A stretch of 64,000 nucleotides of DNA, taken from NCBI GenBank assembly GCA_964588385.1, contig CAZPPG010000016.1, forward strand, positions 1,060 through 65,059, given 5' to 3'. This document shows, one piece after another, positions 8,547 through 61,803 of the stretch (its first letter is position 1; each line of letters opens with the position of its first letter). The notes beneath the pieces were generated by a model. The model made no database searches. It was not told the DNA's origin and worked only from the letters and a program-made list of their open reading frames with translations. This stretch comes from an uncultured Phycisphaeraceae bacterium (GTDB lineage Bacteria; Planctomycetota; Phycisphaerae; Phycisphaerales; UBA1924). Made by a program: the position numbers and the translations under genes.

Positions 8547-9578
8547 TCACGATGCCCGCGACACGCGCACCAGCGACTCCAGCGTACTCGCGGCCGCACC
8601 GGAATCAATCGCGTCGCAGGCGCGCTCCACGCCCTCCCGCATCGTCCCCGCCACACCCGCAACCATGAGCGCGGCCGCCGCGTTCAATGCCGTCGCCTCC
8701 CGGGGCCCGCCCCTCTTCCCCTCGAGCACGGCGCGGAACATGGCCCCGGCCTCGTCCAGCGTCGCCGCCTGAATATCCGCGATCGGGCGCCGGTCCAGCC
8801 CCGCATCCTCGGGTGTTATCGTCGCTTCGCGGATCGTGCCGCCCTCGACAATCGCCACCGCCGTCGGTGCGCACGGGGAGATCTCATCAAGCCCGTCCTC
8901 TGAATGCACCACCATCGCCCGCGTTGAGCCAAGCCGCGCCAGCGCCGACGCGATCGGACGGACGAGTTCGCGCCGGTACACACCCATCAACTGGTGCGTG
9001 GCTCCGGCGGGATTCGTCAGTGGGCCCAGCACGTTGAAGAGCGTCGGAACACCGAGCGAGGCCCGCGTCGCCGCCGCGTGTCTCATCGCCGGATGGTGGT
9101 GAATCGCGAAACAGAAGCAGACGCCTGCCTCGCGCAGGCATCGCGCCTGTCCCTGCACCGATGCGTCCACGTTTACACCCAGGTGCGAGAGCGCCTCGGC
9201 CGACCCTCTCCCGGATCGGCTGCGATTGCCGTGTTTCGCCACCACCACGCGCCCCGCGCCTGCGCTTCCCGCAACGATCGCCGCCGCCGTTGAGATGTTG
9301 AACGTTTTGGCCGTGCCGCCGGTGCCGCACGTGTCCAGCACCACCGTGCCCGGCGCCAATCCCTCCACGGGCACGCGCGTGACGTGGCGCCTCATCGCCC
9401 GGGCCGCGCCCACGATCTCATCGACGCTCGCGCCCCGCGACTGGATGAGCGCGAGAATCGCCGCCAGTTGCGCCGCATCCACCTCCCCGTGCAGCACCCG
9501 CTCAAACAGCCCGTCCGTCTCATGTTCCGAGAGCGAAGCGCCCGAGATCAAGCTCGCGATCACCACCCGTGCGTCCAT
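8547..9578 (-). CDS. trpD: anthranilate phosphoribosyltransferase
   Basis: 343 aa. Contains DTCGTGGTAKTFNISTAAAIV and VAKHGNRSRSGRGSAEAL. Full-length TrpD likeness. Confidence 0.95.
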   Translation of the reverse strand: MDARVVIASLISGASLSEHETDGLFERVLHGEVDAAQLAAILALIQSRGASVDEIVGAARAMRRHVTRVPVEGLAPGTVVLDTCGTGGTAKTFNISTAAAIVAGSAGAGRVVVAKHGNRSRSGRGSAEALSHLGVNVDASVQGQARCLREAGVCFCFAIHHHPAMRHAAATRASLGVPTLFNVLGPLTNPAGATHQLMGVYRRELVRPIASALARLGSTRAMVVHSEDGLDEISPCAPTAVAIVEGGTIREATITPEDAGLDRRPIADIQAATLDEAGAMFRAVLEGKRGGPREATALNAAAALMVAGVAGTMREGVERACDAIDSGAAASTLESLVRVSRAS

Positions 9579-9626
9579 GCCCCCACGATAGCGTCCGCGC
9601 CGGCCGCGGGTTCACTAGGATTGAGC

Positions 9627-12227
9627 ATGGTCTCCACGGTCACATCCGATCGGCCCGTCGCCCCCGCGATGCCGGAGACGCACCGCCTCATCGCGAGCAT
9701 CCGTTCGCTCGTCGCCCTCCGGTCCACGCTCATCCTTGGGGGCCGGGCCCTCCTGGTCGCGTCCGCGATCTCGGTTGTCGCCGTGTTGCTCGGGAAGTTC
9801 TTCGCGTTGCCATGGGCCCGGTCGATCCTCGTCGCGTGGCCGATCCTCACCGCCCTTGCGTTGCTCGCCCTTTTCGTTGGCATCGTCCTCGGGCTCCTGC
9901 GCACACCCCGTCCGCTGGCCGCGGCCTCGATGGCCGATCGCTTCGCCGGCCCGACTGATCACCTTCGCGCCGCGCTCGAACTCTCTCAGCGCACCCCCCA
10001 GGACCCCTTTGTCGGCATCCTCCTTGCCGATGCCGAGCGTGCCGCCCGTGCGTGCCCCCCGGCCAAGGTCGTCCCCATGCGATTCGGCCGCGCGTGGCCG
10101 ATCGCCGCCCTCCTGCTCGCCGGCGCGGTCGCCGCAGCGGTGTGGGTTCCCACACGCACCCTTGATCCGCGTCGCGCCGCCCGCACCCCAGACCCGGGCG
10201 CGCCGGCCCTCGCCTCCGAGGTCGCGCGCGTCGCTCAGGAGGTCCGGGCCGCCTCTGAGTCCGTCGGTCCCGCAATCTCTCCGCGCGATGCCGAACGACT
10301 GGCGGAACTGGAACGCGAACTCCTTGACGGCTCCATCCGCACGGACGACGCACGGGCCGAGGCGGCCGCCTCCGCCGCGTCACTCGCCGATCGTGCCGAA
10401 CGCGAAGCAGAGCAGAATCGAATCGCCGCCGATCGGCTCAGAGAACTCGCCTCCGCCGCTTCGGGGCGTGCCGCGGCGAATCCGGCACCAGACGATCCTT
10501 CCGCCGATGCAACGGCGCCCGCGCCCGGTTTCGATCCATCCGAGGCCGCAGAAGCTGGAACCCCGAGCAATCCAAAGCCAGAGTCGCCCACAACACGGTC
10601 GATGCCCGATCCAAACGTCAATGAGTTGATGAACGCCCTTTCCGAGGGCGATCTGGCCCGCGCGGCCGAGGCCGCTCGGCAACTCTCCGAGCAGGCCGAA
10701 TCGCTCTCGCTCGAAGAGCGTGCCCGCATCGCTGAGCAGCTCGACGCGCTGGCCGAGGCGATGGACCAGCAGATTCCGCCTCCCGAACCCTCGTCCTCTG
10801 AGGCCACGCCACCGGCGGAGTCGAAGCCTCCTCAATCCGACCCCAGCCCGTCCCCTTCTTCCGCGCCGTCTCCCACACAGCCTCCCTCACAACCCGCCGC
10901 ACCAGCGCCCGCACAACCCCAGCCGGCACCGACCCCCGGCACAGCGCCTGAGCCATCCGAGGCGCCAGAGGATCCGATCGAGGCGCAGGCAGATGCCCAG
11001 GAGTCCGCGGCTCGTGACCGTGCTGAGTCAATCAAGCAGCAGGCGGAGCGATCCGCGGAGCGCGATGCTCGCTCCATCGCGGACGCGGCACGGGACGCCG
11101 CGGACGAGATGCGTCGGCCACCACAGCCGCCCGCTCCGTCAGATCAGGCGCAGGACGCACCCCAGGACCGGCCGGGCGAGCAGCAGGCGCGTCCCGAACA
11201 GCAGCAGGGCGTCGAGCAGCGAGGCGCCGAGCCGCAGAAGACAGGTCAAGAGCAGCGGGGCGATCAGCAGCGTCAGGGCTCTGGGCAACGAGGTGCTGAC
11301 CAGCAAGGCACTGAACAGCAGCAAGGATCCGAGGAGCGGGGCGCCGCGCGGCAGCAGACCGGCAAAGAGCAACAAGGCGAACGGCAGCAGCAGGGGTCTG
11401 AACAGCAAGGCGCGGAACAGCAACAAGGCGCAAAGCCAGAACAAGCTTCCGAGCAACAGCAGGACGCTCCACAACAGCAAGGAACCGAGCAGCAGCAAGG
11501 CGACCGGCCGCAACCGGGGTCGGAACAGCAGGGTTCCGAGCAACAGCAGAGCTCTGAACAGCGAGGCTCCGAGCAGCCAGATTCGGATCAACCCGGTTCG
11601 GAAGGTCCGGGTTCGGAGCAACCAGGCGCGCAGCCGCAGCCCCGCCCCGGCTCTGGGCTTGAGCGTCTGCAGCGCACGCTTCGGGAGGCCTCGGAGCGCA
11701 ACGCCGACGCGCGCCGCCAGCAGCAGGCCGCGGAGCGTCTGCGCGAGCTCTCTGAAGACCTCGCCGCGGGACCCGAAACGCTCCCTGAGCCCGGTTCTCA
11801 ACCGGCACCCGATAAGCGCGAAGGGGACAACGGCCTGGCGCGTGAACGCGGCACCGACAGTCCCTCCGGCGGCTCCGGTCCGCTCGACTCGCCACTCACC
11901 CCCGGCCCGCGTCCCTCGCTTGATCGTCCTCGCACACCCGGCGAGGCTCCGACATCCATCGAGAACGTGCCGGGCCCGAAGCCCAGCACACCCATCGGGT
12001 CCGGGCGGGCAGGTGGCGAACGTCCATCCGATCGCCCCGCGCCAACCGAGATCGCGCCCATCACCCCGAGCACGCTCCGCGAAGCGGCTTCGGGTGTCGA
12101 GCGCGCCATCGAGCAGCAGTCCGTCCCCGATCGACGGAGCGACCTCGTCCGTCGCGTTTTCCAGCGTTACCGCGATCGCGCCGAGTCCGCTTCATCCGGC
12201 TCGACCAACCCACCGGATCGCCCATGA
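9627..12227 (+). CDS. membrane protein with very long acidic/Pro/Gln-rich low-complexity region (DUF4175-like partner of BatA/VWA proteins)
   Basis: ATG 9627 (MVSTVTSDRP). Two or three N-terminal TM helices, then Ala/Glu/Pro/Gln-rich sequence. The C-terminal DLVRRVFQRYRD resembles the conserved tail of such proteins. Stop overlaps the next start (ATGA at 12224-12227). Confidence 0.7.
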   Translation: MVSTVTSDRPVAPAMPETHRLIASIRSLVALRSTLILGGRALLVASAISVVAVLLGKFFALPWARSILVAWPILTALALLALFVGIVLGLLRTPRPLAAASMADRFAGPTDHLRAALELSQRTPQDPFVGILLADAERAARACPPAKVVPMRFGRAWPIAALLLAGAVAAAVWVPTRTLDPRRAARTPDPGAPALASEVARVAQEVRAASESVGPAISPRDAERLAELERELLDGSIRTDDARAEAAASAASLADRAEREAEQNRIAADRLRELASAASGRAAANPAPDDPSADATAPAPGFDPSEAAEAGTPSNPKPESPTTRSMPDPNVNELMNALSEGDLARAAEAARQLSEQAESLSLEERARIAEQLDALAEAMDQQIPPPEPSSSEATPPAESKPPQSDPSPSPSSAPSPTQPPSQPAAPAPAQPQPAPTPGTAPEPSEAPEDPIEAQADAQESAARDRAESIKQQAERSAERDARSIADAARDAADEMRRPPQPPAPSDQAQDAPQDRPGEQQARPEQQQGVEQRGAEPQKTGQEQRGDQQRQGSGQRGADQQGTEQQQGSEERGAARQQTGKEQQGERQQQGSEQQGAEQQQGAKPEQASEQQQDAPQQQGTEQQQGDRPQPGSEQQGSEQQQSSEQRGSEQPDSDQPGSEGPGSEQPGAQPQPRPGSGLERLQRTLREASERNADARRQQQAAERLRELSEDLAAGPETLPEPGSQPAPDKREGDNGLARERGTDSPSGGSGPLDSPLTPGPRPSLDRPRTPGEAPTSIENVPGPKPSTPIGSGRAGGERPSDRPAPTEIAPITPSTLREAASGVERAIEQQSVPDRRSDLVRRVFQRYRDRAESASSGSTNPPDRP
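11160..11650 (+). repeat. degenerate in-frame tandem repeat encoding G-x-E-Q-Q-type units
   Basis: Translation reads QDRPGEQQARPEQQQGVEQRGAEPQKTGQEQRGDQQRQGSGQRGADQQGTEQQQGSEERG...GSEQQGSEQQQSSEQRGSEQPDSDQPGSEGPGSEQPG. At DNA level, gaacagcag/caagg units recur. Confidence 0.6.
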
Positions 12228-35026: not shown

Positions 35027-35275
35027 ACATCACCTCTTGAGTTGTGCGGGCCAGTTTCCTCGCGGCGATCCCGCCGGGGCCCCTGAGACTGGTTGGCTCC
35101 GCTCCGGAGCCGCGGGCAATCGCCCGGCTCCAGACAGCATGCCACACACCAGTGAGATGACCAGCATGGGGGCGTCGCGCCAGGGGTCGGGGTCCCGGCC
35201 GTGAGGCGCAGGCAAGCTGGAGAATCAAGATCCAGCCAATCGAAGCGGTTACCGGGCTGCGGAACGATCAGGAAC

Positions 35276-56371: not shown

Positions 56372-57076
56372 ATGGCGATTGAGGTGATCGGTGCGGGATA
56401 TGGACGGACGGGGACGGCATCGCTGAAGCTGGCGCTTGAGCGGCTCGGCTTTGGACCGTGCCATCACATGGCCGAGGTGCTGCCCAACGTGGAGCGGGTC
56501 GCGCTCTGGGAAGAGATCGGGCGGAGCGCGGAGAGCGGGAAGGGCGTGCCGGGCGCGTTGTGGGATCGGGCGTTCGATGGGTACGGCTCGACGGTGGACT
56601 GGCCGGCGTGCACGCACTGGCGCGCGCTGATGGCGCACGCCCCCAAGGCCAAGGTCATCTTGTCGAAGCGCGACGCCGGCAAGTGGTTTGAGTCGGTGAA
56701 CGCGACGATCCTGAACCCCCAGGGTGTGGAGGGGATGCGGGCCTCGCCGATGGGCGAGATGCTTGAGCGCAACATCTGGCGGCTCTTCGGCGGGCGGCTT
56801 GCGGATCGCGAGCACATGATCGCGTGCTACGAGCGACACAACGAGGAGGTGGCGCGCGGCGTGCCCCGTGAGCGGCTGCTGGTGTTTGATCCGAAGGAGG
56901 GGTGGGAGCCGCTGTGCGCGTTTTTGGGGAGGGATGTGCCGCGTGAGCCGTTTCCGCACGTGAACACGAAGGAGGCGATGGTCGAGTTGATGGCGGAGTT
57001 CGGGGCGATGCTCAGCCGCGGGGAGACGGGTGAGGAGTCGATCCGTACGTTTGCGCGGGGGATGTTCAAGAAGTAA
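56372..57076 (+). CDS. sulfotransferase-family protein
   Basis: ATG 56372 is preceded by AGGAG. Contains a PAPS-loop-like GAGYGRTGTASLKLALERLGFGPCHHM. Also VILSKRD and YERHNEEV. Confidence 0.8.
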   Translation: MAIEVIGAGYGRTGTASLKLALERLGFGPCHHMAEVLPNVERVALWEEIGRSAESGKGVPGALWDRAFDGYGSTVDWPACTHWRALMAHAPKAKVILSKRDAGKWFESVNATILNPQGVEGMRASPMGEMLERNIWRLFGGRLADREHMIACYERHNEEVARGVPRERLLVFDPKEGWEPLCAFLGRDVPREPFPHVNTKEAMVELMAEFGAMLSRGETGEESIRTFARGMFKK

Positions 57077-57166
57077 CACGTGCTGGCGGCCTTCGCGTGG
57101 GATGCTGGGAACCGGAGGACGCCGCGCCGCTCACGAATTAGACGGCATTCTGGCTGAGACTTTGCA

Positions 57167-57706
57167 ATGAAGTACCGGATGCGAGTGATAGCCCCCGCCT
57201 CATCCAAGCGAAACGCACCGCTTGCTCGGGGCGTCTTTGCCTACTCATTCGGCAACGATTGCTGGCGATGGGGCGCCGTTGCTTGCGAATATCCGTGGTT
57301 TGGGCCCGGCGTTGACGGCTACTTGGTCCATTTCTACGACGTCGTGAGTCGCGCAGGCGATGCCGTCCCGGACCTTAGCGCTGGCGGGCTTGTGATTCCG
57401 CCGTGCATCACCAACGCGATGCCATGGAGGCGAGGACTGTTTCGGAACGAGTCGTCGGTCGTGCCGCGAGACGGCCGGAGCATGCCGCGGCATTGCCTTT
57501 GGTCGCCTGAAGACAACTTGTATCGCGATGAGCACGACACAGTGCTCCCGAGCGCATTTGAACCCTGCGGACTTAGGATGCTGGCGGGTATCCAGGCCAT
57601 CGAAGAGCTCTTGCTCTCCGCATCTCTGATGGGCTGCTGGGATGGACGCGGCATCTGGCGACTCTGGCCGCCCCGAGATTGGCGGGGCGTGAGCCGGGCT
57701 CGATGA
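57167..57706 (+). CDS. hypothetical protein (islet ORF-A; faint immunity-protein-like pattern)
   Basis: 179 aa with ordinary-looking composition and no homolog recognised. First ORF of the compositionally atypical islet. Confidence 0.5.
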   Translation: MKYRMRVIAPASSKRNAPLARGVFAYSFGNDCWRWGAVACEYPWFGPGVDGYLVHFYDVVSRAGDAVPDLSAGGLVIPPCITNAMPWRRGLFRNESSVVPRDGRSMPRHCLWSPEDNLYRDEHDTVLPSAFEPCGLRMLAGIQAIEELLLSASLMGCWDGRGIWRLWPPRDWRGVSRAR

Positions 57707-57752
57707 TCATGATGTGACCGCACCAAAGGCCGGGCGTCCGCTTTGCAGGCGA

Positions 57753-57949
57753 GAGCCGGGGGCGTCCGCCCCGCTCCACCAAGGATGCGCCCTTCGGGCG
57801 GTGTGGAGGTCGCTGCGCGGCGGGTTTACCGGGGGTAGCGTTCGCCCCCCCCACACACACCGCTCCCTTGACCCCCGGCTGTCAACTTTCAGCCCTGTCG
57901 GGCTGAAGAGCACCGAGCTTGGCCCAACGCGGCCAATCTGCGGTGGCAC
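57753..57949 (+). repeat. copy 1 of a structured GC-rich element (candidate ncRNA or cassette boundary)
   Basis: Block 1 (57753-57787) is gagccgggggcgtccgccccgctccaccaaggatg. Block 2 (57810-57833) is tcgctgcgcggcgggtttaccggg. A hairpin lies at 57890-57905. Block 3 (57906-57949) is aagagcaccgagcttggcccaacgcggccaatctgcggtggcac. All blocks are shared with copy 2. Confidence 0.7.
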
Positions 57950-58021
57950 GGGGGATGAGCAAGGAATCTTGGTGCGACCTGCGACAATCTGAGGTGGTCG
58001 GCAATCGATAAAGTAGATTCC

Positions 58022-58366
58022 ATGAGCGACACCGCCAATCTCGGAGACTCAGTTTTCTTTGCGGCCCGTTCGGCAACGTTTCGTACGGTGTTTCGTTGCT
58101 TGCGAGCGAGCACTCTAACGAACGCCGAGATTCGCGCACTGCTCAATCGGGAAGAAGAGTTTGATGCGATCGGCGGTTGGGACTTCAGCTCCCTCTCTTT
58201 ACATTCCCTCCGTGTGCTGCAAGAGGTGCTGGCCAAGATTGCAGAGGATCCGGTCGCGGCGTCTTCGCATTGGAACCCGGAGCGGCGACCCATATTCGTG
58301 AGCGACATCGAGAAGTGTCGCAGAAATCTGGACGACCGCATTCGGTGGAGTGAGGGTCGGTCGTGA
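58022..58366 (+). CDS. hypothetical protein (islet ORF-B)
   Basis: 114 aa with helical-looking sequence. No SD-like sequence upstream. Flanked on both sides by the repeated element. Coding status is uncertain. Confidence 0.45.
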   Translation: MSDTANLGDSVFFAARSATFRTVFRCLRASTLTNAEIRALLNREEEFDAIGGWDFSSLSLHSLRVLQEVLAKIAEDPVAASSHWNPERRPIFVSDIEKCRRNLDDRIRWSEGRS

Positions 58367-58410
58367 TCGCTGACTTTGTCCATCGTAAGATGCAGTAGAC
58401 GTAGCGTGAC

Positions 58411-58592
58411 GAGCCGGGGGCGTACGCCTCGCTCCACGAAGGATGTCGCTGCACGACGGGTTTACCGGGCGGCGTTGCCCTCGCGTGGGGGCGGGGCTGC
58501 ATTGCCCCGGGCTCCATTCATGCATCCCGTTGGGATGCTCAGAGTGGAGAAGAGCACCGAGATTGCCGCAGAGCCGGCAACTTCGGTGGCAC
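58411..58592 (+). repeat. copy 2 of the structured GC-rich element
   Basis: Block 1 at 58411-58445, block 2 at 58446-58469, hairpin at 58523-58537, block 3 at 58550-58592. Same order and orientation as copy 1, 658 nt downstream. Confidence 0.7.
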
Positions 58593-58676
58593 TCTCAAGG
58601 AAGGTCGGGGCCACCTGCCTGTCCGTTCCTTGGTTCGCAAGGCCCGAGTAGAGGATGGAGTTCTACATCGATCTGC

Positions 58677-59732
58677 TTACCTGCGCACGGCTGTGAATGT
58701 AAAGAGTTTGTCAAGAAACTCCTTTTCTTCCATTGGCCGCGCAAATATTGAGAGTAGTTCGTCAGAACGAAGAATGCGGTTATATAACGACGTTAGCAGC
58801 CTAGTTGCGCATGAGCCTGCATCTCGAAGTCTGCTTACGTACTTGCTACCACTTGGATATTGATATGGAGGTTCGTTACCATGTACAAATTTGTTTCTCC
58901 AATCATAAATGGTTCGTACCCAATTGAGTACATCCCGAGGGTCATGCGTGTCGTGTAGCAATATCGCAGATACAAGTGCTACTGTCGATTGGTTCATTGC
59001 TTTAGCTGCAAACAGGGCCTCGATTGCAATATGCATGCGAAAAGCAATATCCTGTTGGTAGAGCGGTTGCATTGCACATCCGAACATATAGAGCGAACAC
59101 TCTAGGCGAGAGCCATGTGCTTCGAGTTTCTCGCTTGATGTGAGGCGAGCGAGATTGGCAAAGCGTTCGGCCTGCACTTCATATAGGCGCGAAAAAAGCA
59201 GTGGAAAAGAAGACAAGTCTGATGGCTTCTGGTGTGGCGCGAACCCGGTGCCATGTTCGAGTCTTGGCATGAAGCGGTTTGGTCTGTCGTAAAAAGAGAA
59301 CGTCCTGCCCAGCGCGTCGACTCTTGCTGTGTAGAGGTAGTTCGCGTGACCTGGAAGTGGGCCAATTACTTGCAACGTCGAGACAATCACCTTTGCGACA
59401 GCCTCGGACCAGTGCCACCACTTCAGGTGATCGCCCCAAGGGGCGTCATATTCATATCGGAATAGCAGCCGAACATGATCGGCCTCGATGAAACCACGTT
59501 GCTTACCGATATGCGCCTGCCAGAGAGCTAGATCTCTCTTCGATGGCTTTCCGTAGGAGAGTACGCCGCGATACCGGTCTGGCTTTAGTATACGACGTCG
59601 CGATGAGACGTTCAATGCGCCGACGTAGAGCACGCCGACGAGGAGACATATCTTCGCAGAATACTCTTTATCATGTTCAACAATCAGTGGCTTACGTGAA
59701 TTGCGCGACTTGGGGGCCACTTTAATCCTCAC
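58677..59732 (-). CDS. HEPN-motif protein (Apea/Abi-like architecture), candidate RNase toxin or defence effector
   Basis: 351 aa. The C-terminal helical region carries YDWRNKFVHGNE, an R-x4-H motif at 58881-58898. Very low GC (22 of 60 G+C at 58861-58920). GTG start at 59732 overlaps lepA by 11 nt; the alternative GTG 59720 lies 1 nt after the lepA TAA. Confidence 0.7.
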   Translation of the reverse strand: MRIKVAPKSRNSRKPLIVEHDKEYSAKICLLVGVLYVGALNVSSRRRILKPDRYRGVLSYGKPSKRDLALWQAHIGKQRGFIEADHVRLLFRYEYDAPWGDHLKWWHWSEAVAKVIVSTLQVIGPLPGHANYLYTARVDALGRTFSFYDRPNRFMPRLEHGTGFAPHQKPSDLSSFPLLFSRLYEVQAERFANLARLTSSEKLEAHGSRLECSLYMFGCAMQPLYQQDIAFRMHIAIEALFAAKAMNQSTVALVSAILLHDTHDPRDVLNWVRTIYDWRNKFVHGNEPPYQYPSGSKYVSRLRDAGSCATRLLTSLYNRILRSDELLSIFARPMEEKEFLDKLFTFTAVRR

Positions 59733-61641
59733 TCGTATCCAGCACCGCCATGAACGCCTCCTGGGGGATGTTCACGGAGCCGACGTTCTTCATCCGCTTC
59801 TTGCCTTCCTTCTGCTTCTCGAGCAGCTTGCGCTTACGAGAGACGTCGCCGCCGTAGCACTTGGCGGTGACGTCCTTGCGGAAGGCCTTGATGGTTTCGC
59901 GGGCGATGATCTTGCCGCCGATGGCGGCCTGGAGCGGGATCTCGAACTGGTGGCGGGGGATCTGGCCGCGGAGCTTTGAGAGGATCTGGCGGCCGCGCTG
60001 CTCGGACTTGTCCTTGTGCGTGATGAGCGCGAGGGCCTGCACCGGGTCGCCGTTGATGAGGATGTCAACCTTGACGAGTCGGTCGGGCTCGTAGCCGATG
60101 ATCTCGTAGTCCATGGTGCCATAGCCGCTGGTGATGCCCTTCAACTTGTCGTAGAAGTCGTAGATGATCTCGGCGAGCGGGATGTGGAAGGAGAGCATCT
60201 CGCGCGTGTCGGAGACGAAGGTCTGCGACTTGTAGATGCCGCGGCGTTCCATGCAGAGCTTCATGATGTCGCCGATCTTGTCCTTGGGCAGGATCAGATC
60301 CACGCGGCAGATCGGCTCCTTGATCTCCTCGATCACGCCCGCATCCGGAAGGTCCGCCGGGTTGTGAATCTCTTCCTCGACAAGCTCGCCTCCCTTGCCC
60401 TTCGTTGTCACGATGTAGGACACCGTGGGTGCGGTCTGCACGACCTGCACGCCGCCCTCGCGCTCGAGGCGTTCCTGCACGATGTCCATGTGGAGCAGGC
60501 CGAGGAAGCCGCAGCGGAAGCCGAAGCCGAGCGCCTCGGAGTGCACGGCCTGAAACGTGAACGCCGAGTCGTTGAGCGAGAGCTTCTCGATCGCTTCGCG
60601 GAGTTCCTCGAAGGAGTTGCCGCGTTGTTCTTCATCCGTCGCGGGGTAGAAGTCGCAGAAGACCATCTGGCGCGGCGGCTGGTAGCCCTCGAGGGGCTCG
60701 GCGGCGGGATGGATGTCGAGCGTGATGGTGTCGCCGACGCGGACATCGGCGAGGGTGCGGATGGCGGCGACCATGTAGCCGGTCTCGCCCGCGCTGAGCG
60801 AGGGGACGCGATTGGGCTTGGGTGTGTACTTGCCGAGATCGGTGATCTGGAACGTGCGGCCGAGGCCCATCATGCGGATCTTGTCGCCGACCTTGATGGA
60901 GCCGTCGAACATTCGGATGTAGACGATGACGCCGCGGTAGTCGTCGTAGACCGCGTCGAAGATGAGGGCGCGGGCCTGCGTGATCTCGCTTGGGCGCGGC
61001 GCGGGGAGCTTGTCGCAGATCGCAGCGAGCAGCTCGGGGAGGCCCTGGCCGGTCTTTGCGGAGACGTAGATGCACTCTTCGGCGGGGAAGCCGAGGACTT
61101 GTTCCAGTTCCTGCGCGACCTTGTCGGGCTGGGCCGAGGGGAGGTCGATCTTGTTGATGACGGGGATGATCGTGAGGTTCTCGTTGATCGCGAGGTAGGC
61201 GTTGACGACGGTCTGTGCCTGCACGCCCTGCGTGGAGTCGACGACGAGCAGCGCGCCCTCGCACGCCTTCAACGCGCGCGAGACCTCGTACGTGAAGTCC
61301 ACGTGCCCGGGCGTGTCGATGAAGTTGAGCATGTAGAGCTCGCCGTGGGTGTCGGCTTTGTCCGCGGCGTTCTTGGTCTTGTGCGTGCCCGCCTCGTCGA
61401 CGGGGGCTTCGTAGTCGGTCTCGAGTTCGTCAGCGGTCGCGCCGGGCTTGTGGCGGTGCATGACGGTGACGGCGGAGGCCTTGATGGTGATGCCGCGTTC
61501 GCGCTCGAGGTCCATGGAGTCCAGGAGCTGGTCGCGCGCTTCGCGGGCCGAGACGGCGTTGGTCGCCTGGAGGAGGCGGTCGGCGAGGGTGGACTTGCCG
61601 TGGTCGATGTGGGCGATGATGGAGAAGTTGCGGATGTTCAT
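59722..61641 (-). CDS. lepA: translation elongation factor 4
   Basis: ATG 61641 ([24 protein letters not shown]). Contains [11 protein letters not shown] and NKIDL. Full-length LepA likeness apart from one insertion. Confidence 0.95.
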   Translation of the reverse strand: [639 protein letters not shown]

Positions 61642-61803
61642 GGGAGGGTGAAGGTCGGGCGGGCGGACGTAACCGCTGGCCGGAAAGGGGCTTGCGAATC
61701 GTGCGTGGTGCGGCGACAGCGAGGCCGTCCCGCGTGGGCAGGATGGTATGCGAGGGAATACGAGCACACCGCTCTGGAGAGCGGTGCCGCCGTGAAGCGA
61801 GCG

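Follow-up and report, generated by a model that had tools for sequence, protein, structure and literature searches.

Our understanding of the way in which bacteria accumulate and rearrange small adaptive genes rests mainly on two models, integrons and, more recently, the rAID arrays, both of which work with a dedicated tyrosine recombinase, the integrons having in addition attC sites with invariant core triplets. Here we describe the same outward anatomy in an uncultured lineage of high GC content, but with a longer junction element that carries several hairpins and with no adjacent recombinase. The stretch analysed, called the window hereafter, is a 64-kb piece (64,000 nucleotides) of contig CAZPPG010000016.1, assembly GCA_964588385.1, from an uncultured Phycisphaeraceae bacterium, and the element in question is a non-coding sequence of ~210-240 nt of which the window holds exactly two copies, both on the plus strand, at 57753-57983 and 58411-58619, 658 nt apart; about 20 further copies or fragments lie on related metagenome contigs, denoted below by L numbers. 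We tentatively propose, at a little short of an even chance, that these copies join or link the genes of a cassette array akin to an integron or a rAID array, exchange taking place at their conserved blocks, and with the same reserve we take the family to be lineage-restricted, modular and hairpin-rich, separating horizontally acquired orphan genes between a sulfotransferase gene and lepA. If the elements mediate exchange, they would broaden the known ways of building cassette arrays and would offer a sequence by which such arrays could be found; failing that, they are still a clean lineage-specific modular repeat with hairpins under selection. The genes and element modules are placed as follows, in window coordinates.

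57077..59721, no strand: strain-variable island from the sulfotransferase stop to the lepA stop (ORF1, copy 1, ORF2, copy 2, ORF3), with conserved flanks and differing content
ends at 57076, plus strand: sulfotransferase gene
57167..57706, plus strand: open reading frame ORF1, 179 aa, orphan cassette gene
57753..57983, plus strand: element copy 1, c1-type (duplicated unit, C-rich centre), nhmmer E = 3e-53
57753..57787, plus strand: module B1 of copy 1, hairpin GAGC-C-GGGGC gtcc GCCCC-GCTC and then CCACCAAGGATG; sharp 5' end
57788..57809, plus strand: 22-nt extra unit CGCCCTTCGGGCGGTGTGGAGG, duplicate of the start of B2
57810..57840, plus strand: module B2 of copy 1, TCGCTGCGCGGCGGGTTTACCGGGGGTAGCG, local hairpin
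57888..57907, plus strand: hairpin P3 of copy 1, TTCAGCCC tgtc GGGCTGAA
57911..57945, plus strand: hairpin P4 of copy 1, CACCGAG-c-TTGGCC caacgc GGCCAA-tctg-CGGTG
57941..57983, plus strand: 3' unit of copy 1, CGGTGGCAC, purine-rich stretch, TGGTGCGACCTGCG (degenerate CGGTGCCACCTGCC); 3' end
58022..58366, plus strand: ORF2, 114 aa, cassette gene
58411..58619, plus strand: element copy 2, c2-type (G-rich centre), nhmmer E = 1e-55, fold z-score -4.1
58411..58445, plus strand: module B1 of copy 2
58446..58474, plus strand: module B2 of copy 2
58522..58538, plus strand: hairpin P3 of copy 2, GCATCCC gtt GGGATGC
58555..58588, plus strand: hairpin P4 of copy 2, CACCGAG-a-TTGCCG cagagc CGGCAA-c-TTCGGTG
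58584..58619, plus strand: 3' unit of copy 2, CGGTGGCAC, tctcaaggaaggt, CGGGGCCACCTGCC
58677..59720, minus strand: ORF3, 347-351 aa, low-GC orphan; last, inverted gene of the array, directly downstream of lepA
59722-61767, minus strand: lepA

Clusters of attC sites without an integrase are known as CALIN (Cury et al. 2016, PMC4889954). The elements resemble them in being co-oriented repeats less than 4 kb apart, on one strand, between short, mostly promoterless orphan genes of atypical GC content, and also in having conserved ends around a variable middle, with structure kept more than sequence, and a CALIN likewise needs no adjacent integrase; the usual mark of such a cluster, at least two same-strand sites less than 4 kb apart flanking short open reading frames, is present here. 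An attC site, however, is a single imperfect hairpin of 57-141 nt (R and L boxes, unpaired spacer, extrahelical bases) whose ends pair with each other, whereas the element, at 210-240 nt, has about twice the usual length, at least four separate hairpins (B1, B2, P3 and P4), 5' and 3' blocks that are not complementary, and breakpoints at several blocks. Hairpin P4 alone (34-38 nt) does have outer and inner stems separated by a mismatch, but without the attC sequence boxes, and a regular-expression search for canonical attC sites found no RYYYAAC (R'') ... GTTRRRY (R') pairs 45-220 nt apart in the window island or in the L101, L102, L107, L150, L154 and L155 arrays. A complete integron, moreover, needs intI and attI beside its array, while this one is bounded by the sulfotransferase gene and lepA, and no recombinase was seen among the translated open reading frames of the 64 kb, of which a subset was run against Pfam.

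With the rAID arrays, the likeness is one of architecture: short orphan genes, skewed GC content and conserved intergenic motifs. At least some rAID genes are, in addition, homologous to toxin-immunity genes. The rAID-1 arrays of Bacteroidales are headed at their 5' end by an XerD-family tyrosine recombinase gene, whereas no such gene heads this array, its genes are not all co-oriented (ORF3, a 175-aa and a 310-aa gene are inverted), and its host is a high-GC bacterium of another lineage. As to toxin-immunity homology, only ORF2 qualifies, by way of a homolog (57%) that begins 4 nt past the stop of a PT-HINT (pretoxin HINT) gene on two contigs, where the upstream protein (L099:2-3862, L100:2-922; >1173 aa) combines TSP3 repeats with the PT-HINT domain. 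The gene right after a polymorphic toxin gene is its cognate immunity gene, and from this position we infer that the ORF2 homolog may be such an immunity gene; no cassette protein matched a Pfam immunity family, and the predicted ORF2 model, which is confident (pLDDT 81), had no fold match in the PDB. A profile search found no element copies at these two PT-HINT loci, and the idea that the element is a relic of the toxin gene was dropped after a tblastn search of the arrays with the PT-HINT toxin found nothing.

Two other groups of repeats or modules deserve comparison. The BIME/REP sequences of enterobacteria and the BOX elements of pneumococci are mosaics of short, non-coding intergenic hairpin modules that fold into stable stem-loops and can act on mRNA stability and termination (the former reportedly described by Gilson and by Bachellier, the latter, it is said, by Martin et al. 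in 1992). They share with our element the mosaic of palindromic modules and the variable unit number, with B1 alone, P3-P4 alone or one to three 3' units, but they occur in hundreds of copies genome-wide, whereas here the two copies sit in a 2.6-kb island and the remaining 61 kb of the window lack the element. The minimal mobile elements (MMEs) of Neisseria and the module boundaries of lambdoid phages, in which alternative cassettes lie between conserved flanking genes and are exchanged at conserved sequences, differ in using the flanking genes or short linkers, without a 200-nt multi-hairpin element between the genes. We therefore place the locus among the repeat-punctuated gene-cassette arrays, and not within the integron, rAID or BIME/BOX families.

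The two copies had been picked out in an earlier note, made from the letters of the window only, which proposed for them one structured RNA of ~190 nt. Their presence and their three ordered blocks are borne out by a pairwise alignment, in which blocks 1, 2 and 3 follow in equal order and copy 1 has a 22-nt insertion; by block 1 itself, which is identical at 32/35 nt between the copies and, with up to 3 mismatches allowed, has 2 sites in the 64 kb against 0/100 shuffles; and by the family profile (nhmmer), which matches the window at 57751-57987 (E = 3e-53) and 58409-58621 (E = 1e-55), the next-best match having E = 8. Sensitive BLAST and the same profile gave no third copy in the other 61 kb. 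The starts given in that note are right, but the copies do not end at 57949 and 58592: their 3' edges are ~30-35 nt further on, at the conserved motif CGGTGCCACCTGCC (57970-57983, degenerate, and 58606-58619), and thus both edges of the element are sharp, with GAGCCGGGGGCG... on the 5' side and ...CGGTGCCACCTGCC on the 3' side. The insertion in copy 1 is likewise real, but what had been read as an extra hairpin is a tandem duplicate of the block 2 start, a unit that stands in place of block 2 in L107. The region recurs in two independent assemblies, at 100% identity over 973 nt in one (L001) and at 96.6%, with the same layout and gene order, in the other (L098).

A candidate third copy at 35107-35141, an intergenic GC-rich hairpin GGAGCCGCGGGCAATCGCCCGGCTCC with 74% identity to block 1, was rejected, having no other module and an nhmmer E of 8; the resemblance is due to chance, and the site is probably a terminator-like hairpin of the ordinary kind.

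The element is non-coding, as had been argued before, because the blocks lie in different frames and the gaps between the copies are not multiples of three, for which reason a coding hypothesis was discarded. No Rfam family accounts for it either, with 0 gathering-score matches in the window, 0 at E <= 1 in eight related loci, and only chance snoRNA matches (E 2.4-9.8) at 57000-59900. The earlier picture is thus partly supported: the element has structure, does not code for protein and has a novel sequence, yet it is not one RNA gene.

One reason for this last correction is the modularity of the family. Across the related loci, the modules follow in the order B1, B2, centre, P3, GAAGAGCACCGAG, P4 and 3' unit(s). 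B1, with its sharp 5' edge at GAGCCGG, is a hairpin followed by CCACnAAGGATG, and the part of it conserved across copies is the 3' half, CGCCCCGCTCCACnAAGGATG; B2 is a hairpin around GGGTTTACC, its start being tandemly duplicated in copy 1 and its relatives; the centre is variable, C-rich in the c1-like subfamily and G-rich in the c2-like one; GAAGAGCACCGAG is a conserved segment leading into P4, a hairpin of 13-15 bp (34-38 nt); and the 3' unit, of which an element has 1-3, consists of CGGTGGCAC, a purine-rich stretch and CGGTGCCACCTGCC. The conserved linker blocks around the variable middles are B1, GAGCACCGAG and CGGTGGCAC on either side of P4, and the 3' motif, and the single-stranded blocks CCACnAAGGATG and CGGTGCCACCTGCC are conserved as sequence. 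These modules also occur separately: B1 is found alone or with a small hairpin only in L106 and L154, the series P3-P4-3' unit without B1 and B2 in L102 and L104, and the 3' unit doubled or tripled in L101 and L155.

Between two B1 modules of L106 (760-1070, equivalent to L154:835-1150), there is an imperfect palindrome of ~300 nt with a fold z of -4.4, whose perfect arms (for example GTAGCCGCGGGTG/CACCCGCGGCTAC) measure 13-14 bp. Fragments of it lie at L150:2660-2720 and L155:60-140, and other copies of the element contain single arms as spliced-in pieces. The palindrome may be an extra module or a nested insertion resembling a miniature inverted-repeat transposable element (MITE).

The first observation behind our reading is that the content of the island differs between related strains while its flanks stay conserved. 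The relatives were gathered from the few homologs of ORF1, ORF2 and ORF3 and their contigs. Their sulfotransferase genes are 74-99% identical to the window's at the nucleotide level (99% in L098, 89% in L150, 77% in L154), and their lepA 3' ends are 98% (L150), 96% (L154) and 99% (L101 and L102) identical. Between these flanks, from the sulfotransferase side to lepA and with minus signs marking inverted genes, the arrays read as follows.

Window: ORF1, element, ORF2, element, ORF3
L150: ORF2, 441-aa gene, element, 313-aa gene (-)
L154: ORF2, B1 + long palindrome + B1, two lipoprotein genes (129 aa and 155 aa), element, 382-aa gene (-)
L101: element, 175-aa gene (-), element, 127-aa gene, element fragments, ORF3 homolog
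L155: element, 310-aa gene (-), element, 175-aa gene (-), element, ORF2, element

Homology to the window stops exactly at the lepA stop codon, and the gene proximal to lepA is swapped between strains for unrelated orphans, belonging to the 347-351-aa Rx4H family of ORF3, to a 313/319-aa family, or being a 382-aa protein. The genes in this place are window 58677-59720, L102:644-1603, L150:5133-6074 and L154:2286-3434, all on the minus strand, and the 313/319-aa family carries an N-terminal GAGxS...P motif. ORF2 occurs in at least six different array contexts.

The polarity of the elements is fixed, as all 21 significant profile matches at non-redundant loci lie on the sulfotransferase-to-lepA strand (L101, which is stored inverted, being read relative to these two genes), with up to four co-oriented copies per array, whereas the array genes, and the ORF1 family by itself, occur in both orientations. 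The CGGTGCCACCTGCC motif precedes every array gene, in L150 even the one that comes right behind the sulfotransferase gene, and B1 follows most of them, starting 4-50 nt past their stop codons. Within the available sequence, the elements are restricted to the island, with no copy in the other 61 kb of the window or in the ~8 kb L149 flank.

At L104:798-1030, a 5'-truncated second ORF2, of the L106 type, is fused right after the 3' motif of the element that trails the first ORF2, either as a pseudo-cassette made by recombination or as a chimeric low-coverage assembly.

Comparing the arrays pair by pair, the mosaic breaks fall in the conserved blocks. Between L101 and L155, near-identity extends through the 175-aa gene and into B1 as far as AAGGATG, after which the subtype switches; L101 and L102 share 59 identical nt up to GGTGGC before diverging; L102 and L155 are identical save for a swapped P4 inner stem, with breakpoints on both sides of that stem; L150 and L102 break at the start of the 3' motif; and L155 and L150 share the same ORF2 3' spacer as far as the first base of B1. 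To judge from the sequences, this is the pattern that recombination at shared linkers would produce. The conserved blocks, then, would be the places where the arrays recombine, genes and element middles would be swapped as modules between strains and between positions, in functional likeness to integron attC sites or to the repeats between the genes of Bacteroidales rAID arrays, and P3 and P4 would be kept by selection on single-strand pairing, whether of DNA during replication or recombination or of a transcript, and would serve for recognition or insulation. From this mosaicism we infer that the elements are selected for recombination at the blocks, be it homologous or site-specific; given that the breakpoints are spread over several blocks, homologous recombination or gene conversion would be favoured over a site-specific system.

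Several findings weigh against the elements being junctions of an exchanged cassette array. There is no single crossover point among the breakpoints. L150 has two adjoining genes with no element between them. Over 57 kb upstream and 4 kb downstream, no recombinase, integrase or transposase was seen among the translated open reading frames, a subset of which was run against Pfam. The comparison stands on ~10 short metagenome contigs that were found by way of one gene, ORF2, and the constant presence of the element in the island is, therefore, partly a matter of ascertainment. Exact-pattern scans gave chance matches in coding DNA only: 6 for block 2 in GTDB genomes, 41 for block 1 in JGI metagenomes, and 1, 89 and 0 for blocks 1, 2 and 3 in IMG/VR. 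The mismatch counts in P4, 6 G.U versus 2 A.C, are too few to name the folding strand, and B1 shows the opposite trend. A BLAST search of a plasmid collection with the whole two-copy region likewise gave no match, and since neither this search nor the pattern scans gave genuine further copies, the family is rare. A bolder form of our reading would make the locus an unrecognised gene-capture system, a functional analogue of the integron in which these ~230-nt elements take the place of attC and are used by a recombinase that is unlinked or not yet known, or else by the replication or repair machinery working on folded single strands, which assembles and shuffles immunity or defence genes at a fixed site by lepA; this we regard as rather improbable.

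The pairing of the hairpins bears on every reading of the locus, and it must be kept in mind that compensatory changes between two copies alone do not identify an RNA gene. The hairpins and coordinates quoted previously are correct for P3 (CAGCCC/GGGCTG versus CATCCC/GGGATG) and for P4 (TTGGCC/GGCCAA versus TTGCCG/CGGCAA inside CACCG/CGGTG), as is the change from G-C to G.U in the first hairpin. Pairing kept by compensatory change, as claimed from the two copies, holds for P3 and P4 across a dozen copies, but neither for the 5' half of B1, which decays through A.C mismatches without compensation while the 3' half is conserved as sequence, nor for a global fold. P4 forms in 13/14 copies; over 14 positions in 12 copies, 156/168 cells are standard pairs (93%), and 3 positions are altered on both sides (A-T/G-C, G-C/C-G and C-G/G-C). 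Only 2/1000 column shuffles match the observed pairing and 4/1000 the covariation score, and sliding the partner strand lowers pairing to 26-48%. These pair statistics come from a hand-registered alignment, the alignment based on a covariance model having mixed forward and reverse matches of this near-palindromic hairpin. P3 shows two compensatory pairs between the two subfamilies, plus G.U intermediates. A conserved global fold is not supported by RNAalifold on 7 full copies, where the covariation term was +1.64 (positive meaning penalising), which, together with the separate occurrence of the modules, tells against the single ~190-nt structured RNA. As a whole, copy 1 folds no better than its shuffles (z = -1.5), copy 2 does (z = -4.1), and the hairpin energies are about equal on the plus and minus strands. 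Selection may thus act on P3 and P4 pairing either in RNA or in single-stranded DNA.

The words of the P4 arms reappear in a 13-nt perfect inverted repeat, CCGAGATTGGCGG / CCGCCAATCTCGG, that flanks copy 1 at 57673-57685 and 58032-58044. Its left arm lies within the last 13 codons of ORF1, without counterpart in the 175-aa homologs, and its right arm in the conserved N-terminus of ORF2.

If the pairing is that of a transcript, the element could be an intercistronic or 3'-UTR (untranslated region) module in which B1, P3 and P4 work as terminators lacking a U-tract, as insulators, as RNase processing sites or as blocks to 3'-exonucleases, the similarity of the copies being due to duplication along with the cassettes. 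We consider this explanation doubtful, although a good deal agrees with it: the compensatory and G.U changes of P3 and P4 are seen on the plus strand, on which ORF1 and ORF2 are encoded; block 1 starts 4-50 nt past stop codons; copy 2 sits between the convergent ORF2 and ORF3; and, given that the conserved leader of ORF2 is only ~18 nt long, ORF2 probably depends on read-through transcription. However, no terminator of hairpin and U-tract is predicted in either copy, the hairpin energies do not distinguish the strands, the 5' half of B1 loses its pairing uncompensated while its 3' half is kept as sequence, and the single-stranded blocks CCACnAAGGATG and CGGTGCCACCTGCC are also kept as sequence. 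The elements also keep one orientation beside inverted genes, for which they would be antisense, and so the earlier remark that each copy follows one small ORF is true of the window but does not make the element a 3'-UTR feature. An insulator or terminator role in RNA could, nevertheless, coexist with the junction role.

The promoter and terminator scan found nothing inside either copy, and the one terminator-like site of the region is inside ORF1 on the other strand. At L154:1240-1275 (equivalent to L106:1164-1199), between a B1 module, which it directly follows, and the two lipoprotein genes downstream, there is a near-consensus sigma-70-type promoter (TTGACG, 17 nt, TATGCT), and therefore at least some cassettes have a promoter of their own.

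A further explanation, which we hold unlikely, would see in the element a non-autonomous mobile repeat of the MITE, PATE or REP-BIME/BOX kind, which a transposase encoded elsewhere, for instance an HUH enzyme acting on single-stranded hairpins, would mobilise in trans and insert repeatedly between the island genes. Its sharp 5' and 3' ends, without terminal inverted repeats but with subterminal hairpins, agree with this, as does its single chromosomal orientation, in a plus strand of positive GC skew throughout; the modularity and the variable number of 3' units recall the BOX and BIME elements, and, of L155 and L150, one has an element and the other lacks it, the difference setting in exactly at the first base of B1. 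A MITE or a PATE derived from IS200-IS605, though, should show terminal inverted repeats with a target-site duplication, or else a conserved target oligonucleotide next to its left end, and the ends GAGCCGG... and ...CACCTGCC are not inverted repeats. The absence of copies from the 61 kb and ~8 kb outside the island fits such mobility poorly, and so does the lack of any transposase among the nearby ORF translations that were read. At the 10 junctions inspected, there is neither a conserved flanking target nor a duplication, the left flanks being different (…gcga, …tgac, …acgt, …aaca, …agca, …tgga), and no pair of loci was found with the same neighbour genes with and without the element.

The least supported explanation is that of a free-standing structured RNA or an ORF3 antitoxin, that is, a discrete ~190-nt non-coding RNA gene or cis-regulator possibly countering a HEPN-like neighbour, which we judge very improbable because, although the copies are non-coding and GC-rich, with conserved blocks, covarying hairpins, no Rfam match and, in copy 2, a fold better than shuffles (z = -4.1), copy 1 reaches only z = -1.5, there is no global consensus fold (covariation term +1.64), the modules assort independently, truncated or duplicated, no sigma-70-like promoter lies inside the element, and it is present, in up to four copies per array, where no ORF3 homolog exists. 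Type III toxin-antitoxin systems (ToxI-like) do offer the likeness of a repeated non-coding sequence beside a possible RNase-type toxin gene, but in ToxI short tandem repeats directly precede the toxin gene and share its transcript, whereas these copies are 658 nt apart with ORF2 between them and on the strand opposite ORF3.

The neighbouring gene itself, ORF3, does carry the RNKFVH (Rx4H) motif that led to its being called a HEPN gene, but this motif is its sole tie to HEPN, as no match was found in Pfam, PADLOC, NCBIfam or, by sequence, in the PDB, and its AlphaFold model (pLDDT 50) is unreliable. The proposed link between element and HEPN gene has no support, since the element is also present in arrays that have a gene of another family, not related to ORF3, next to lepA.

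Returning to the genes of the island, ORF1, ORF2 and ORF3 had no match in Pfam, PADLOC or NCBIfam, and the other cassette proteins had no Pfam or NCBIfam assignment. ORF1 has one homolog of 96%, in L098, and shares 35% identity with a 175-aa ORF of L101 and L155, whose orientation there is opposite to that of the elements. The GC content at third codon positions is 0.70, 0.64 and 0.50 for ORF1, ORF2 and ORF3, respectively, versus 0.8-0.9 in the surrounding genes, and the GC profile dips at the island; because of these low third-position values relative to the host genes, the three ORFs look horizontally acquired.

The upstream neighbours of the array are the sulfotransferase gene, a gene for a 202-aa secreted protein and a 2-hydroxyacid dehydrogenase gene, and what remains of the window is made up of housekeeping genes, among them mreBCD, sdhABC, miaB, nadC, fabI and birA. 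Far from the island, at 11196-11579, three tandem units of ~111-117 nt (61-76% identity) lie inside an ORF rich in Q, E, G and P (9384-12227); these repeats are a low-complexity protein region, unrelated to the element.

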